A stretch of 64,000 nucleotides of DNA from the NCBI GenBank assembly GCA_963820825.1, contig CAWGBN010000008.1:32001-96000 (forward strand), given 5' to 3'. The notes under the pieces were generated by a model. It ran no database searches, was not told where the DNA came from, and saw nothing but the letters and a program-made list of their open reading frames with translations. This document shows positions 4,344 through 13,023 of this stretch, one piece after another. The translations under genes were made by a program, and so were the position numbers. Every line of letters starts with the position of its first letter. Within the stretch, counting starts at the first letter, position 1. This DNA comes from Vulcanimicrobiota bacterium (GTDB lineage: Bacteria > Vulcanimicrobiota > Vulcanimicrobiia > Vulcanimicrobiales > Vulcanimicrobiaceae).

Positions 4344-5609
4344 GTGACACACTGGAATCTTAATCGCTACGCGTTGAGATGCGGCGTCGTCGCTGCATTG
4401 CTTGCTGGCTGCGGGGGATCGCAGCCCCCGATCGACGCGCCTGGTCTAATGGCTCAAGGTCCAGCGCTCGCGGCACGCACCAGTAGCTCGAACTACAAGG
4501 TCGTGTATAGCTTTGGCGCACCCCCGGATGGAGGCTGCCCCCTCGCCGGTCTGATCGACGTGGGCGGCACGCTCTACGGAACGACGAGCGGAGGCGGGGC
4601 ATACACTATCGATAGCAACTGCTTTTATCACACGGGTCTATTCGGAACGGTCTTCAGTATTACAACGGGCGGCAAGGAGAACGTGCTGCACAGCTTCGGC
4701 AACTATCCAGACGGGAGCGAACCTGTTGCCGGCCTAATCGACGTGCACGGCACGCTCTACGGCACGACGAGGGGAGGCGGCAGCACCGCTGGGGGCGGCG
4801 GAACCGTCTTTAGCATCACCACGAGCGGCACCGAGCACGTTCTGCACAGCTTCCTTGGCAGAAAACCTGATGGCGATAATCCCAACGCATCTCTGATCGA
4901 GCTAAAGGGTAAGCTCTACGGCACGACGAGCAATGGCGGCAAGCACGTGAACAGCGGCGGAACGTTCTTCAGCCTTACGGCGGACGGCACGGAGAAAGTG
5001 CTCCACTTTTTCGGAGGAAGCCACGGCAGGAATGTCGAGGCGGGCCTAATCGATGCCGGCGGCGCGCTCTACGGCACGGCTTATTCGGGGGGCGCTTACC
5101 ACAAGGGCGTGGTCTTTAGAATCACTCCAAGCGGCAGGGAGAAGGTGCTCCACAGCTTCGGCAACGGAACCGATGGCGCTTATCCCACCGCATCCTTGAT
5201 CGAGGTAAACGGCACGCTCTACGGCACGACAGAATTCGGTGGCGCGTACAAAGGTGGCACGGTTTTTAGCATCAGCACGAGCGGCACGGAAGAAGTGCTG
5301 CACAGCTTCGGCTACGGGACCGATGGCGCTGATCCCGCGGCATCCCTAATCGAGGTAAACGGCACGCTCTACGGCACGACCAGCGAAGGCGGGTCGTACA
5401 GGTGCGGCCGCACCACTAAGTATTTCAACTGTGGAACTGTGTTCAGCATAACGCCAAGCGGCACGGAAGAGGTGCTCCACAGCTTCAGCAAAGGAACCGA
5501 CGGCACTCATCCGGTCGCGCCCCTGATCGACTTGAAGGGCACACTGTACGGCACGACGGAATATGGCGGCGCCAACCAAAACGGAACGGTCTTCGCGTTG
5601 ACTCCATAA
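4344..5609 (+). CDS. GloVer (TIGR03803-like) repeat lipoprotein, 7 repeats
   Basis: RBS AGGAG, lipobox LLAGC, seven LYGTT repeats, ends GTVFALTP. Confidence 0.85.
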   Translation: MTHWNLNRYALRCGVVAALLAGCGGSQPPIDAPGLMAQGPALAARTSSSNYKVVYSFGAPPDGGCPLAGLIDVGGTLYGTTSGGGAYTIDSNCFYHTGLFGTVFSITTGGKENVLHSFGNYPDGSEPVAGLIDVHGTLYGTTRGGGSTAGGGGTVFSITTSGTEHVLHSFLGRKPDGDNPNASLIELKGKLYGTTSNGGKHVNSGGTFFSLTADGTEKVLHFFGGSHGRNVEAGLIDAGGALYGTAYSGGAYHKGVVFRITPSGREKVLHSFGNGTDGAYPTASLIEVNGTLYGTTEFGGAYKGGTVFSISTSGTEEVLHSFGYGTDGADPAASLIEVNGTLYGTTSEGGSYRCGRTTKYFNCGTVFSITPSGTEEVLHSFSKGTDGTHPVAPLIDLKGTLYGTTEYGGANQNGTVFALTP

Positions 5610-6001: not shown

Positions 6002-6433
6002 ATGCGAAACATTTTGATCGTCTTGGTGGCCCTCGTTGTCAGCTTGGTACCCCAAGTCGGCTATGTTCACGCATCGAGCACGCCTCCCACAACGGTTACG
6101 GCCATTGACATAGCCCTGGAGCCAGATGCGACGATGCTCCAGCACGCGGCGGCACTCAACGCGCGGTTGCGACAAAGCTTTCCAAAAGGATACGCACTCA
6201 ATGCGAGTCACCGCCCGCATGTGACCATGCTCCAACGGTACGTCCGCACAGCGGACCTCCCCAGAGTGTACGCAGCAGTAGAAAAAATCATGAGCGCAAA
6301 GAGTCCAGCAAGGTGGAAGCTTCAAGCATTCAAAATCGACCATGCCGTTTGGAGCGGCCTGGCTCTCACGGTCATTCTCGCCAAACCGCCGGCGTACGGC
6401 ATGGGCCGCTACACTCTTGCGCATGGAGTATGA
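6002..6433 (+). pseudogene. Truncated secreted 2H phosphoesterase (2'-5' RNA ligase superfamily) gene
   Basis: Signal peptide, then AIDIALEPDATML...PHVTMLQ with only the first HxT motif. It runs directly into the RBS of the next gene. Confidence 0.6.
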
Positions 6434-6434
6434 A

Positions 6435-7664
6435 ATGATTGCACGTTTCCGCGGCGTTGTCATGATCGCGGTGGTCGCGGCAATGCTCGCGAATTGCGAT
6501 GGATTGCAGACGTCGGTCAGACAGCCAGGCGCGATGCCCCAAAACATCACGGCGCCGGCGGCGTCGCAGCATTTGGGATCATCCGGCTACAAAATCCTCA
6601 CGAGCTTCAGCGGCCTTAATGGCGACAAGAACCCTGCTGGGGATGTAGTCGCGATGCGTGGTAAGCTATACGGCACTACCAGCGCGGGTGGTGTGCTTGG
6701 CGCAGTCTTCAGCGTAAACCCGGCTACCGGCACCGAGAGGGTGTTGCACCATTTTCAAGGCCAACCCGATGGCGCTGCCCCCCTCGCCGGTTTGACCGCC
6801 GTCGACGGCAAGCTCTACGGCACTACCGCTAGCGGGGGTGTGTATGAGGCCGGAACCGTATTCAGCGTGACCCGAGGCGGTAAAGAAACCGTGTTGTACA
6901 GCTTCGGCGGCTACGGCTCTGATGGCGAGTTGCCTCAGGCACCCTTGATATACGTGAATAGCGAGCTGTACGGTACGACATATAATGGCACCGGTTCTGC
7001 GGGCTCTGGTACAGTCTTCAGCGTTACTTTGAATGGCCAAGAGACAGTGCTGCATCGCTTTACGAATTATCCTAGTGACGGCGCGTGGCCCTTGGCTGGG
7101 CTCACCTATGTAAACGGGCTCCTATATGGCACTACGACTGCCGGCGGAACGACGCACGGGACTCATGGCGCGGGGACCGTCTTTAGCATCACGTCAGACG
7201 GTAGAGAGAACCTAGTTTTCAGTTTTCTTGGAGACACGAATGGCTCCGACCCAATGGCAGGCTTGATCAGCGCCAACGGCGCCCTCTACGGCACGACCAC
7301 GCAAGGCGGCAAGTACCGCTGTGGTACGGTTTTCCGCATCAGCAAGAGTGGGAGTGAAAAGGTCGTCCACAACTTTCGAAATGTTCCCGATGGCTGCTTC
7401 CCATATGCTGGATTGATCGATGTAAAGGGTACGCTTTACGGGACGACCGGCCACGGCGGATCATACTACCAAGGACGCGATGGTGGCGGAACCGTGTTCA
7501 GCATCGCGCCAACCGGCAAAGAAACGGTGCTGCATAGCTTTGGCTCGGGCACAGACGGGTCTGACCCGCTAGCCGGACTCACGAACCTGCACGGCACACT
7601 TTACGGAACGACAAGTCGAGGCGGCGCTCACGGTTACGGAACAGTCTTTGCATTGACCCCATAG
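6435..7664 (+). CDS. GloVer (TIGR03803-like) repeat protein, 7 repeats, probable lipoprotein
   Basis: GGAG RBS before ATG 6435, atypical lipobox LANC, seven LYGTT repeats, ends GTVFALTP. Confidence 0.85.
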   Translation: MIARFRGVVMIAVVAAMLANCDGLQTSVRQPGAMPQNITAPAASQHLGSSGYKILTSFSGLNGDKNPAGDVVAMRGKLYGTTSAGGVLGAVFSVNPATGTERVLHHFQGQPDGAAPLAGLTAVDGKLYGTTASGGVYEAGTVFSVTRGGKETVLYSFGGYGSDGELPQAPLIYVNSELYGTTYNGTGSAGSGTVFSVTLNGQETVLHRFTNYPSDGAWPLAGLTYVNGLLYGTTTAGGTTHGTHGAGTVFSITSDGRENLVFSFLGDTNGSDPMAGLISANGALYGTTTQGGKYRCGTVFRISKSGSEKVVHNFRNVPDGCFPYAGLIDVKGTLYGTTGHGGSYYQGRDGGGTVFSIAPTGKETVLHSFGSGTDGSDPLAGLTNLHGTLYGTTSRGGAHGYGTVFALTP

Positions 7665-7858
7665 CGGACGGCTCCCCGTACGCGAAATGGGTGCTTAGCG
7701 GAGGAGAGACGCACATCGATGCATCGGCGATCACATTCCATCCCCGTGCAGCGCCAAAAGCGTTACGCCATATAGCCTTTTCGCGACGCCGCGCGATTTG
7801 CAAACGGCGCTGCAAACTTTGCACGCGGCGCGGGCGATCGAGCGCGCTACCAAAAAGC

Positions 7859-8422
7859 CTGATATGTTACCGAACGGGCCGCGTTGAACGGTTCCCTTAA
7901 CCCGAAAGGGCGGGTCGGCACATCCTAAAACGCCTTGGGCTTCGAGCTCGGAAATAAGATCGATGGCCGACCCGATGACTGCTATCCTAGGAGATCGGAC
8001 CGTATCTTAGGCCGCGTACGTCGCGAAGCCTGTATGCATCAGGGTGATCGTTCGGGATAGCTTGCCGGCGAGTGAGGTGAGCGTGGAGATCCTAGGCATC
8101 GACGTCGGAAAGCACGAGATGCACGCAGTTCTGCTGCAGGACGATCGTTCGACATCGAAAAGCGTCGCCAATTCGGCAGCCGGTTTTAAGCAGTTACAGA
8201 GCTGGCTGCGCAATCGCAAAGCCGAGAGGGTGCACGCGTGCCTCGAGGCCACCGGCGGTTGGAGCGAAGATCTGGCGCTCGCGCTGCACGAGGCCGGCCA
8301 TGTCGTCAGCCTGGTCAACCCCATGCGCATCAAAGCATTCGCCAAGAGCGAGATGCTGCGGACAAAAACCGACCGCATCGATGCAGCACTCATTGCACGG
8401 TTCTGTCGTACGCATGTGCCAG
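7859..8422 (+). mobile_element. IS110-family (IS621-like) element: left end plus 5' part of the recombinase gene; right part missing
   Basis: CT core at 7859-7860 predicted from the guide loops, about 220-nt structured non-coding left end, DEDD RuvC-like domain ORF. Confidence 0.85.
7875..8061 (+). ncRNA. IS110 bridge RNA (target-binding and donor-binding loops); 5' end approximate
   Basis: Stem cgggtcggc/gccgacccg (7911-7974) has an internal loop with aaaacgcct and aaataag. Stem gctatcc/ggatagc (7981-8061) has accgtatct and gcatcag. The layout parallels the IS621 bridge RNA and the guides match the left junction. Confidence 0.8.
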
Positions 8423-8430
8423 GGGGCTGA
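8083..8430 (+). pseudogene. IS110 recombinase N-terminal DEDD domain, interrupted by an IS3-family element
   Basis: LGIDVGK...CLEATG...VNP..IKAFA...KTDRIDA motifs. The C-terminal serine (Tnp) domain is absent. Confidence 0.9.
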
Positions 8431-8925
8431 GCCCCGGAATCTAGTCCAATGGGAATTGTGGGTTTCCGGCCAAGATGGCCTGCAAAGGAGACCCGCATGC
8501 GCAAGCGACGCTACACCGAAGCGCAGATCGTCGCGATCCTTCAAGAGCTCGACGCCGGCCGATCCGCAGCTGAGCTCGCTCGCAAACACGGCGTTCACGT
8601 CAACACGCTGCGACTGTGGCGAAGCAAATACGCCGGGCTCGACATCAGCGATCTCACCCGTCTGAAAGAGCTCGAATCCGAAAACTCGCAGATGGAGCGC
8701 ATTGTCGCGCGTCAAGCCCTCGAGATCCGCGCGATGTCCGAGGTGATTCGAAAAAACGGGTGGGGCCCTCAGCGCGCAAGGAAGCGGTGAGGGCGTTAGA
8801 GGACGAGGGGATGAGCCAGCGGCAAGCGTGCCGCCTCGCGACCTGCCCCCGACCGACCGTACGATACAAACCACGCAAACGCCCCGGCGACGAGCACGTC
8901 CGCGATCGGTTGCGTTGCATGGCGT
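8423..8925 (+). mobile_element. IS3-family element fragment (left end, orfA, start of orfB)
   Basis: IRL-like ggggctgagccccggaatctagtcca, HTH orfA, AAAAAAC slippery site at 8751-8757, orfB start in the -1 frame (MSQRQACRL) with no DDE domain. Confidence 0.85.
8497..8790 (+). CDS. IS3-family transposase OrfA
   Basis: MRKRRYTEAQIVAIL...ELARKHGV...WRSKYAG...RLKELESEN, AAGGAG RBS. Confidence 0.9.
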   Translation: MRKRRYTEAQIVAILQELDAGRSAAELARKHGVHVNTLRLWRSKYAGLDISDLTRLKELESENSQMERIVARQALEIRAMSEVIRKNGWGPQRARKR

Positions 8926-9123
8926 TTAACGAAAGTGGAGATCCCTTGATTTGGATAGACGAATAGTCCTTAAACCTGCGTGCCGCATGAACCAGACCGC
9001 GGTGCGTCATTTGGTGCCTATCGGGAGTCGAATCAGTTAAATGTGCGTTCAAGTGGTCTAAGCTGGTGCGATAATATAGTAGGTTTATTTGTCCGTTCAC
9101 TCAGCGAAAGGAAATCGTGATCT

Positions 9124-10137
9124 GTGCAGGCTGTTGTAACCTTGGAAGCCCGTTATATATTTGTCGACATAGTCGGTTATACGTTAAAGCGCAGTATCGA
9201 AGCTCAAGTTGATTTAATAAAGGCTCTAAATGAAATCATCATTCAGGCCTTTGAGCGAGAGGGAGTCCCACGAGAGCGCTTGATGTTTTTTCCGGTCGGT
9301 GACGGCGTGTGTTCAGCCATTCTAGGAAACGCGCCGGATCGAGCTGCTGACGATTATGATGCTCACGTCCGAGTAGCTTTGCGAATGCTGGAATTGTTGC
9401 ATGAATACAACGCGCGCACGGAAGACGCGATGCGACGTTTCTCTATTCGAGTTGGGCTAAATGATAACATAGATAATGCCGTAACTGATATTAACGGAAA
9501 CGATAATCTTGCAGGCTCGGGAATTAACGGGGCACAAAGAGTAATGAGCGCGGCCGAGGCGAGTCAGCTATTTGTAAGCAGAGCCGTTTATGATAGATTG
9601 CGTGACCGCGAGTTCTATATGAATGCATTTCGAGAGGTATCAAGCTACACGAAACACGGGGAACGGCTCACTGTTTACCAAGTCATTCTTAACGATCGCC
9701 CTGGGCTTGATGTATCGCTTCCGAGGTCTCTGCAGGCTGCGGCTGAGCCTAGGCTGCCGCGCCTCTTAGGGTACTACATGCGCGCCGCTTTACAGCACCA
9801 GGAAGAGTTGCTCGGGATGCCTGAACTTCCGGGAAACTCGTTGTGGGAAGACGCGGCGCGCATCATGTATTATATGATGGCATTAGATGAGGAGGCGCAA
9901 GAACGTAAAGGTCCATACGATCCACCAACGTTGATGCTTAGTCCTCGGGGCGACGTGACGTTTAGAGAGCGCCTAGCGTACTATCACTCGCAGGATGTGT
10001 GGATCATTCATCTGCTTGCGCGCAAGATTGAGGCGCTGACGACGTTTACGAACTGCTTTGACGGACCGCGCTTTGTATACGTGAATGAGTGTGGTAGGGA
10101 GAAGCTTCGTATGGATCACCCGGACCTAGCTCCATAG
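9124..10137 (+). CDS. Class III nucleotide (adenylate/guanylate-type) cyclase domain protein with an unknown C-terminal domain
   Basis: FVDIVGYT, GDG, RVGLN and GINGAQRV (N-x3-R) catalytic motifs; AT-richer than the flanks. Confidence 0.85.
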   Translation: MQAVVTLEARYIFVDIVGYTLKRSIEAQVDLIKALNEIIIQAFEREGVPRERLMFFPVGDGVCSAILGNAPDRAADDYDAHVRVALRMLELLHEYNARTEDAMRRFSIRVGLNDNIDNAVTDINGNDNLAGSGINGAQRVMSAAEASQLFVSRAVYDRLRDREFYMNAFREVSSYTKHGERLTVYQVILNDRPGLDVSLPRSLQAAAEPRLPRLLGYYMRAALQHQEELLGMPELPGNSLWEDAARIMYYMMALDEEAQERKGPYDPPTLMLSPRGDVTFRERLAYYHSQDVWIIHLLARKIEALTTFTNCFDGPRFVYVNECGREKLRMDHPDLAP

Positions 10138-10160
10138 CCGCGAGCAGCACAACCCGCCCA

Positions 10161-10185
10161 CGCCCGCGAGGCCGCATCGCGCTAG
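10161..10185 (+). repeat. 25-bp direct repeat, copy 2
   Basis: 23/25 identity with 1032-1056. Confidence 0.7.
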
Positions 10186-10362
10186 GCGCTTAGCGTAGCC
10201 TCGCCGCTGCGCAGCACGGCGCCGATCGCGTGCGCAATTGCGCCTCGCAGTGCCTCGCAGTCTCGCAGCTTAGGTTATCGATACTTGGCGCTTAGATCGC
10301 GCCGCAGCTTAGCCGGCCCAGCGCAGGGGGCCTCGTTTTGAAGTGGTCTAACTCCTATCCCG

Positions 10363-13023
10363 CTATGCTGCCGTGCCGTGGCACTTCTTGTATTTTTTTC
10401 CGCTGCCGCAGGGGCACATTTCGTTGCGGCCGACCTTCGGCTGTTCACGCTGCATCGGTTTGGTGGGTGACTCGTCGTCTTTGTTCGTGTGGAACTGTTG
10501 GACGCGCCGGCCGGCGCCGGGCATTGGGCCGAGGAGCTGTTCGACTTGTTGCGCCGGTAATGCGTTGCCGGCGGCAACCGGTTGCGGCACAAGTTCGCCC
10601 GAGGGAATCGGCTCGAACTGCGGCGGGGGCGGGCCACCCGGCGAGTACGGCGTGAGCTGTTGCGGCGGCGGACCGTGCTCGATGACGACGCGAAAGACGC
10701 CTTTGATCGCTTCGTCGGCGATGTTGTTCTTCAGCGACTCGAAGATCTCGAAGGCTTCCTTCTCATACTCGACGCGCGGGTCTTTTTGACCGTAGCCGCG
10801 CAGGCCGATGCCGGTCTTCAAGTGATCCATTACGTAGAGATGGTCGACCCACTGGCGATCGATGATCGGCAGCAAGAGATAGCGCTGCTCGACCACGCGC
10901 AAGATCTCCGGCGTTACTTCCTTCTCCTTGGCTTCGTATGCTTCGCGCGCTTTCTGCTGCAGCACGCGGCGAATCTCTTCGCGGTCCTTGCCGGTTAGTT
11001 CGTCGACGAAGAGGCTGCGCTTCGCGGGAAAGACCAGATCGAGCGCGTTGAGCATCTCGGGGAGGTCCCACTCCTGCGGATGGACGTTCTCGGGCGCGTT
11101 CTCCTCGAGCGCTTCGTTGACTTTTGCCTCGAGCGTCTGCGTCATGAACGTCCGCGAATCGAACGTTCCTTCGAGAATCGCACGGCGGTCGGCGTAGATG
11201 ATCGTGCGCTGTTTGTTCATCACGTCGTCGTATTCGAGCACGTGCTTGCGAATCTCGTAGTTGTGATTCTCGACCTTGCCCTGCGCGCGCTGAATCGACT
11301 TAGTCACCAAGCCCGATTCGATCGGCTGCTCGTCGGTAAAGCCGACGCGCTCCATGATGTTCGTCATCCGGTCGCCGCCGAAGAGGCGCATTACCTCGTC
11401 TTCAAGCGAAACATAGAAGCGCGACGAGCCGGGGTCGCCTTGGCGCCCCGAGCGTCCGCGTAGCTGGTTGTCGATCCGCCGCGACTCGTGGCGTTCGGTG
11501 CCGATAATGTGCAGGCCGCCGTTCTTCGCGACGCCTTCGCCGAGCTTGATGTCGGTGCCGCGCCCGGCCATGTTGGTGGCGATCGTCACCTGGGCTTCTT
11601 GGCCCGCGTCCTTGATGATCTCGGCTTCTTGTTCGTGATACTTCGCGTTGAGCACGTTGCACTCGACGCCCTTGCGCCGCAGCATCGTCGCGAGCAGCTC
11701 GCTCTTCTCGATCGAACGCGTGCCGACGAGCACCGGCCGGCCCTTTTTGTGCTCGTCGATGATCTCGTCGACCACCGCATCGAACTTCGCCTTCTCGCTC
11801 TTGTAGACGATGTCGGAGTTGTCTTTGCGGACCATCGGCATGTTCGTCGGTACGACGACGACGTCGAGGCCGTAGATGTCGCGGAACTCTCGCTCCTCGG
11901 TCTTCGCCGTACCGGTCATGCCGGCGAGATGATCGTAGAGCCGGAAGAGATTCTGAAAGGTAATCGTCGCCAGCGTCTGGTCCTCACCGCGGACCTTGAT
12001 ACCTTCCTTCGCTTCAATTGCCTGGTGGATGCCGTCGGAGTAGCGCCGACCGTACATCAGGCGCCCGGTGAACTCATCGACGATGATCACCTCGCCATCC
12101 TTGACGATATACTGCTGGTCGCGATGGAAGAGGTTCCAGGCCTTGAGCGCCGCGTTGAGCTGATGCGTCAGCTCGATGTTGCGCTGCTCGTAAAGATTCT
12201 GGATGCCGAGCATCTTCTCGACGTGGGCGACGCCGGTTTCGGTGATTGGAACCGCGTGCGCCTTCTCGTCGACGGTGTAATCCTCGCCCTTCTTTAGCCG
12301 CGGCAGAATCTGCGCGAACTTGTCGTAGAGCTCGCCCGACTCTTGCGAGGGTCCGCTGATGATCAGCGGCGTGCGCGCCTCGTCGACCAGAATCGAGTCG
12401 ACTTCGTCGACGAGCGCGAAGTAGAGCTCGCGTTGGACGAGGTCTTCGACTTGCCAGGCCATGTTGTCGCGCAGATAGTCGAAGCCCACCTCGTTGTTCG
12501 TAACGTAGGTCACGTCGGCGTTGTAGGCGTCGCGGCGCTGCGCCGAATCGAGTCCGTGCTGAATGATGCCGACCTTCAAACCGAGGAACTCATAGATCGG
12601 GCCCATCCACTCGGCGTCGCGGCGGGCGAGGTAATCGTTCACCGTAACGACGTGAACGCCGCGTCTTTCGAGCGCGCGCGCGTAAACGGGAAGCGTCGCG
12701 ACGAGGGTCTTGCCTTCGCCGGTCTTCATCTCGGCGATGCGCCCCTCGTAAAGCACTTGACCGCCCATGATCTGGACGTCGAAATGACGCATCCCGACGG
12801 TGCGCACGCCGGCTTCGCGGACGACCGCAAAGACCTCGGGCAGCATATCGTCGAGCGCCTCGCCCTGCTCGAGCCGGCCGCGAAACTCGGCGGTCTTCGC
12901 TTGCAGCTCGGCGTCGGAGAGCGCCTTGATCGATGCTTCGAATTCGTTGACGGCCCGCGCAGTGCGCCGCAGACGTGCGACTTCCCGCTCGTTACCGTCG
13001 ATGATGCTTTTAATGAACGACAT
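10363..13023 (-). CDS. secA: Preprotein translocase subunit SecA
   Basis: [40 protein letters not shown]-terminal SEC-C motif [13 protein letters not shown]. Confidence 0.99.

Follow-up and report, generated by a model that had tools for sequence, protein, structure and literature searches.

A truncated IS621-like insertion sequence with a predicted bridge RNA at a terminator-like hairpin in a little-studied bacterial phylum

Introduction

The locus described here raises two questions: whether a short stretch of bacterial DNA, recognized from its letters alone, encodes the bridge RNA of a mobile element, and whether anything of that element still works. The bridge RNA of IS621 possesses two internal loops with target and donor guides, an arrangement that has been proven experimentally, and it also works in trans, as set out in the available portions of two reports (Durrant et al. 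2024, PMC11208160; Hiraizumi et al. 2024, PMC11208158). The window, by which we mean the whole 64,000-nt stretch of DNA that was analysed (G000:C8:32001-96000), belongs to a 2.98-Mb assembly that is 85% complete. A preliminary description had applied the IS621 layout to one part of it, and every coordinate and string given there was located in the window at the place named.

Here, we follow the guides of this locus into related genomes. We are highly confident that the window carries the 5' part of an IS621-like insertion sequence with a bridge RNA, that this element was inserted at a terminator-like hairpin, and that it would employ an IS621-type mechanism when intact.

Materials and methods

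A DNA search of 201 genomes of the same family gave matches in 20, the genome of the window (G000) included. Matches to the element proper began at query position 112-116, which is the CT core, and the first ~110 nt of the query were also matched alone in many genomes. A scan of genome contigs with protein alignment returned 15 loci from MAGs of Candidatus Eremiobacterota/WPS-2 (Tumulicola, Cybelea); 7 of these duplicated loci already found and were dropped. Locus L007 (G051), from an unpublished genome, was excluded from all counts and from both the RNA and the protein alignment; it is consistent with the other copies (right flank 5/5, left flank 4/7). A 28-nt match, L022 (G096), was left unused, the degenerate copy L029 was dropped before counting, and L025 and L046, each of which has only one side, were counted for the side present. 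The register of guides against flanks was set by the IS621 layout together with the 5/5 and 9/9 matches, and a consensus RNA structure was computed with RNAalifold on 17 copies.

Results

The window holds the left part of an IS621-like element

Judged by its sequence, the segment 7861-8422 is the left 562 bp of an IS110-group (IS621-like) element of ~1.2 kb. Intact copies, 1187-1203 bp in length, are present in related Eremiobacterota genomes. In comparisons with seven intact or near-intact relatives, homology spans window positions 7853/7858 to 8414/8425 at 88-93% identity. Because homology to the intact copies of other genomes starts at 7853-7858, the junction at 7852-7863 (AAAAAGC at 7852-7858, core CT at 7859-7860, GAT at 7861-7863) is the true left end of the element. 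The features of the locus are as follows.

7756..7851, + strand: left part of a lineage-specific intergenic repeat carrying the insertion site, with palindrome TGCAAA-N-TTTGCA; common to the L002 flank (homology 7756-8422) and IS-free in many relatives
7852..7860, + strand: left target half-site AAAAAGC and core CT (left junction); placed by the homology start and an 8/9 match to the left target guide
7861..7868, + strand: right donor half-site GATAT (7861-7865), 3-bp subterminal repeat GTT (7866-7868) and -10-like TATGTT (7863-7868); composite promoter and repeat in copies with both ends
7861..8422, + strand: truncated IS110-group (IS621-like) element, comprising the left end and the first ~113 recombinase codons; 88-93% identity to intact copies
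7876..7895, + strand: small 5' hairpin of the predicted non-coding RNA; helix 1, 4 pairs, 2 with changes on both sides
7911..7974, + strand: predicted target-binding stem-loop, with left guide, inner hairpin (7936-7951) and right guide; helices 2-3 and guide-flank covariation
7927-7935, + strand: left target guide aaaacgcct, by the IS621 layout
7952-7958, + strand: right target guide aaataag, by the IS621 layout
7982..8060, + strand: predicted donor-binding stem-loop, with left donor guide and right donor guide (8034-8042); helices 4-7, the left donor guide matching intact right ends
7999-8007, + strand: left donor guide accgtatct, by the IS621 layout
8083..8422, + strand: recombinase fragment with most of the RuvC-like domain, keeping D, E, D and D and missing the coiled coil and the Tnp domain with the catalytic Ser; PF01548 (E 2.2e-21), alignment to IS621 (8wt6) and IS621 domain limits
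8428..8935 (ends approximate, by eye), + strand: IS3-family fragment interrupting the IS110 element and itself truncated (orfA and the start of orfB); orfA vs PF01527, E 1.1e-20, with a longer copy at L037 374-1168

The open reading frame at 8044/8083-8430 encodes the N-terminal part of an IS110 DEDD transposase and stops at the start of the IS3-family orfA fragment. The motifs GIDVGK, LEATGG and KTDRIDA align with D11, E60, and D102 and D105 of IS621. The intact relative L004 (319 aa) aligns with IS621 over residues 3-316 of 319 (E 1.3e-75) and with ISCro4 at E 1.1e-73, and its D, E, D, D and ESG positions align with IS621 D11, E60, D102, D105 and S241. The C-terminal Tnp domain (PF02371) and the catalytic Ser, present in the intact relatives as a YESGS motif aligned to the S241 loop of IS621, are missing from the window copy, whose sequence is cut at ~8422; the right end and the right junction are likewise absent. 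The local recombinase had been called broken, and it is: the IS3-family fragment cuts it after ~residue 113. The window copy is a dead fossil, and nothing functional is left there.

The longer copy of the IS3-family protein is located at G000:C6. A low-GC stretch at 8950-10140 (0.44-0.50 vs ~0.6 around it) stands where the IS would continue to its 3' end and the target hairpin would have its right half; it is probably foreign DNA, and it holds a 337-aa open reading frame (9124-10137) with a weak match to adenylate/guanylate cyclase (PF00211, E 3.2e-8). Upstream of the element lie two tandem genes for secreted repeat proteins (4344-5609 and 6342-7664) with GTLYGTT-type repeats, and similar genes also flank IS copies in relatives (L005).

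Joined ends of the element form a promoter motif

When the right end is joined to the left end, the sequence motif TTGACN, 17 nt, TATGNN appears in 12/12 copies with both ends. This agrees with the preliminary description, in which the -10-like tatgtt at 7863-7868 was held to be completed on circularisation. In 9 of the 12 copies the 14-bp donor sits between the arms of a 3-bp inverted repeat (by eye), mostly AAC...GTT and, in L045, GAC...GTC, which agrees with published accounts of a short subterminal repeat in the IS110 group. The integrated window copy has GAGCGC at the -35 position (by eye), so this copy has no promoter of the joined-end type. Contigs from RNA libraries in four runs (X16-X19) cover relatives of 7859-8090 at 85-99% likeness, with DNA carry-over possible. 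Among these contigs no joint to the right end was found and one runs into an unrelated chromosomal left flank; such contigs reveal neither RNA ends nor transcription.

Copies and recombinases in the same genome

By DNA search, the genome holds two copies of the element in total, the window copy and L002, both truncated; neither this search nor a PF02371 search found an intact copy in the 85%-complete assembly. L002 is 89% identical to the window copy over 571 nt. The transposase frame of L002 spans 284 aa; likeness to intact copies breaks off 5 nt short of the stop codon, and the last ~36 codons and the right junction are gone. Because the sequence past the break rejoins the flanking repeat ~50 nt beyond the expected right junction (by eye), L002 must have lost its 3' end and right junction by deletion. 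It keeps a PF02371 match (89.2 bits) and has W in place of the conserved G that follows the catalytic Ser of intact copies. The PF02371 search marked five places, namely L002 and four of an unrelated 420-aa IS110-family recombinase; the other IS110-family recombinases of the genome are 26-30% identical to that of this element, and in pieces only. The 420-aa transposase occurs as three identical copies (G000:C2:344277, C5:233017 and C6:622882; L033-L035) and one broken copy at C6:628445.

The window copy keeps a complete RNA part, 88-93% identical to intact copies. This orphan bridge RNA might still be in use, transcribed from a promoter in the flank and taken up in trans by another recombinase, such as one of the three identical 420-aa proteins, and the published text on IS621 that we draw on describes its bridge RNA as working in trans. 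We nevertheless consider such continued use improbable, since the only cognate recombinase gene in the assembly is truncated and altered beside its catalytic Ser, the other recombinases are so distant, and the integrated copy has no -35 box.

Covariation supports a two-loop RNA

Folded as a single sequence, the RNA region forms two stem-loops with internal loops, no better than shuffled sequences (z = -1.13; 29/200 fold as well). The alignment of 17 copies gave a small 5' hairpin, a target stem-loop and a donor stem-loop with 48 pairs in all. In this aligned fold 96.2% of cells are paired, vs 27.9-41.6% in slid controls, and 12 pairs are changed on both sides, vs 2.9±1.4 in shuffles (0/500 reach 12) and 1-5 in slid alignments. 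Helices 2-3 of the target stem-loop contribute 19 pairs, 4 of them changed on both sides and 96-98% paired; in helix 6 of the donor loop 6/9 pairs are invariant, and these say nothing on the pairing state of the donor guides when the RNA is unbound. The two-loop structure is therefore supported by covariation in the alignment and not by the single-sequence fold, which is unexceptional. Rfam 15 yielded no match at gathering score on the whole window, and at E <=10 on 7700-8200 only a spurious match to the miRNA mir-7948 (E 6.9).

Guides match the ends and flanks of related copies

The donor guides were compared with the element's ends. Of the 14 distinct copies that have a right end, 13 read ACACCGTAT-CT there, the exception being L042 with ACCGTAC-CT, and the left donor guide matches the right end 9/9 in 8 copies and 8/9 in 6. 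The ends of intact copies, ACCGTAT-CT and then TAT.., are those foreseen in the preliminary description. The right donor guide, given earlier as gcatcag, was found at 8036-8042; the fuller guide at 8034-8042 is AUGCAUCAG, which pairs with CTGATAT with GC bulged out (a 2-nt bulge; by eye). The donor loop can base-pair with the junction of right and left ends.

The target guides were compared with the flanks. Right target guides match right flanks at 63/70 positions in 14 copies, vs 40.0±3.5 when guides and flanks are re-paired (0/20000 reach 63), a comparison that overstates independence because the copies are related. The right guides and right flanks covary, and five different guide sequences each occur with the predicted flank.

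AAATAAG, several copies: flank TATTT
ACATAAG, L005 and L046: flank TATGT
ACACAAG, L006: flank TGTGT
TGAAAAG, L013: flank TTTCA
GAATAAG, L044: flank TATTC

The right target guide pairs with no fewer than 5 flank bases, and with as many as 7 in L013 (by eye). Left target guides match left flanks at 85/126 positions in 18 copies, vs 60.2±5.5 on re-pairing (1/20000 reaches this value), where independence is again overstated by the relatedness of the copies. Across copies, left-side matching is clearly looser than right-side matching. The left guide of L045 matches its left flank 7/7 (9/9 with the core); the window copy, L006, L008, L042, L044 and L048 match at 6/7, L005, L041 and L049 at just 3/7, and L013 at 0/7, the left junction of L013 also being without a CT core. 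Many left flanks are A-rich and alike, which inflates the left-side matches. Each half of the insertion site can pair with the target loop, the left more loosely. For the window itself, the guide had been claimed to match the element's own left junction; the match is 8/9, or 6/7 outside the core, at an end defined by homology, and the agreement of guides with flanks exceeds chance across copies.

Could the left end be a mere 5' untranslated leader, or a regulatory RNA acting on the translation or stability of the transposase message, whose likeness to the flanks arose by chance or from A-rich targets? The unexceptional single-sequence fold and the inflated left-side matches would suit such a leader. 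It would not account for right guides and right flanks that change together in five sequences, 5/5 in each, nor for a left donor guide that equals the right end of intact copies, and the close homologue IS621 uses exactly such loops, as established by experiment in the published sections cited above. We accordingly regard a leader as very improbable and retain the bridge RNA.

Insertion at a hairpin that ends a host repeat

The element lies within a repeat of the host lineage. This repeat is at least 110 nt long (window 7717-7851, palindrome at ~7811-7823) and ends in a terminator-like hairpin; in the flank of L042 its homology extends to 7717. In G000 only two copies occur, both IS-occupied, and many occur in relatives (L009-L032). 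Ten IS-free copies of the repeat (L009, L010, L012, L014, L015, L016, L026, L027, L031 and L032) carry the hairpin AAAA..C-CT-TATTTTAC-AGGCTTTTT at the position that the IS occupies in G000. Seven of the ten read CT-TATTT exactly, and L010, L031 and L032 are one-base variants. The left half of the empty site in L031, AAAACGC-CT, equals the left guide of the window exactly, and the occupied flank of L052 also reads AAAACGC-CT. The target predicted in the preliminary description, AAAACGC-CT-TATTT, is thus borne out by the empty sites of relatives, which read AAAA..C-CT-TATTT. In L042 and L044, where both flanks of the occupied site are present, the flanks together restore the hairpin of the empty sites. 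The core CT is present at both junctions of intact copies and once in empty sites, and there are no terminal inverted repeats and no target duplication.

Several empty loci have the hairpin close to secA, ~100 nt from the 3' end of that gene and on the opposite strand (by eye, against the secA end at window position 10363), so the window copy occupies a syntenic site. Some copies lie outside the repeat, as does L024, directly after a tRNA-Gly gene. L052, with a truncated copy of the IS and the same Eremiobacterota-type repeat, lies on a contig assigned to an Acidimicrobiaceae MAG, a placement that could reflect mis-binning or transfer. A second lineage repeat, 90 nt long and 89% identical between window 10161-10249 and L002 708-797 on the other strand (GCTGCGAGGC-type units), is inverted near both IS copies and also lies near empty sites (L017, L028).

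Within its own genome the exact predicted target gave 0 sites at <=1 mismatch, and at <=2 mismatches 3 sites vs 3.2 expected, so the target is not enriched; the three include the inverted arm of the repeat next to L002. An unoccupied GTC-CT-TATTTTACAGGCTTTTT site at G000:C9 ~8533 (minus strand) lies directly after a tRNA- or tmRNA-like 3' end and agrees with the window guides 5/5 in its right half and 1/7 in its left; in other genomes, L004 and L041 occupy a comparable position.

The window copy and L002 share 96 nt upstream of the junction, as if the repeat belonged to an element that starts at ~7756 and the junction were internal, but this is hardly credible, since in G092, G175 and other genomes the likeness between copies stops at 7853-7858 and the flanks are unrelated, and the upstream repeat stands alone in many genomes with its hairpin intact at the insertion point. 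A start at ~7756 was ruled out, the boundary being placed at the CT core both by the copies of other genomes and by the IS-free repeats. The 96 nt are therefore a separate repeat and the left junction is real, because the homology of relatives starts at 7853/7858.

Discussion

We propose that the IS was inserted at the boundary between the 5' arm and the loop of the terminator-like hairpin AAAA.GC-CT-TATTTTAC-AGGCTTTTT, which ends the repeat downstream of secA. The left end of the element would encode a bridge RNA with two internal loops. In an excised circle the right end would be joined to the left, creating a sigma-70-type promoter (TTGACA, 17 nt, TATGTT) from which this RNA may be transcribed. 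AAAACGC-CT and CT-TATTT, which lie on opposite strands, would then be the partners of the target loop, and at the circle junction ACCGTAT-CT and CT-GATAT would be those of the donor loop; strand exchange at the CT core would be carried out by a recombinase tetramer. For transcription from the circle, the geometry of pairing and the catalytic steps, the proposal follows work on IS621 and would hold by analogy with it.

The near-perfect right half (63/70), the tolerant left half (85/126, several at 3/7) and the repeated landing at a hairpin loop or after tRNA genes lead to a further, tentative reading, which we think rather unlikely: the two target halves may be read unequally, with site choice driven by the right guide and by the hairpin structure of the DNA. 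The contrast between a strict right and a loose left side is explained equally well by drift of the guides after insertion. 'Half-match' and 'sequence-structure dual-match' targeting have been reported in recent preprints, according to those parts of them that we draw on, and unequal reading of the target halves, if true, would be a natural counterpart of these behaviours. The left/right asymmetry in any case offers a natural data set on mismatch tolerance, as ~15 distinct copies carry at least 8 different right guides, and the comparison can extend from guides and ends to both occupied and empty sites. Intact relatives such as L004, L005 and L048 are candidate new orthologues for work on bridge recombinases. 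More generally, raw sequence sufficed for a correct reading of bridge-RNA guides, although the copy was truncated and came from an uncultured phylum.

How does this element compare with known systems? Recombinases of the IS1111 group and of seekRNA elements belong to the same DEDD family and likewise depend on an RNA for the choice of site. In the IS1111 group, as far as the source text available to us describes it, the RNA lies in the right end and the subterminal repeats are 7-17 bp long, whereas the present element has a left-end RNA and a 3-bp repeat. A study by Tobes & Pareja from 2006 is said to deal with the insertion of ISPpu9/ISPpu10-type IS110 elements into REP sequences and intergenic hairpins. 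Insertion at one defined position of a repeated palindromic intergenic element (REP or conserved hairpins) is a trait that the present element would share with them, again within the limits of the accessible sources; the repeat family and the organism differ.

The closest likeness is to IS621, whose published description we use in part. The recombinase aligns with that of IS621 along its full length, DEDD and Ser positions included; as in IS621, the RNA precedes the gene within the left end, with left and right target and donor guides in two internal loops; the core is CT, and a 9-nt right donor guide pairs discontiguously with 7 donor bases. The short subterminal inverted repeat around the donor, the promoter rebuilt across the joined ends and the choice of repeated extragenic palindromes as targets are also shared, and the bases after the right guides (A after AAG, G after CAG) would fit the handshake positions. 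Unlike IS621, the hosts are Eremiobacterota MAGs, the guide, donor and target sequences are the element's own, the right target guide pairs with at least 5 flank bases vs the 4 bp given in the IS621 text, and the window copy is truncated and immobile. The preliminary description had spoken of a new variant from a poorly sampled lineage. The lineage is indeed a little-studied phylum (Candidatus Eremiobacterota/WPS-2); the novelty was overstated, because the recombinase aligns end to end with IS621 and the RNA layout, core, donor pattern and repeat are the same. At the level of sequence, the features that mark the IS110 group were found and the layout matches that of IS621 in every feature compared, which makes this a known kind of element, here from a candidate phylum.
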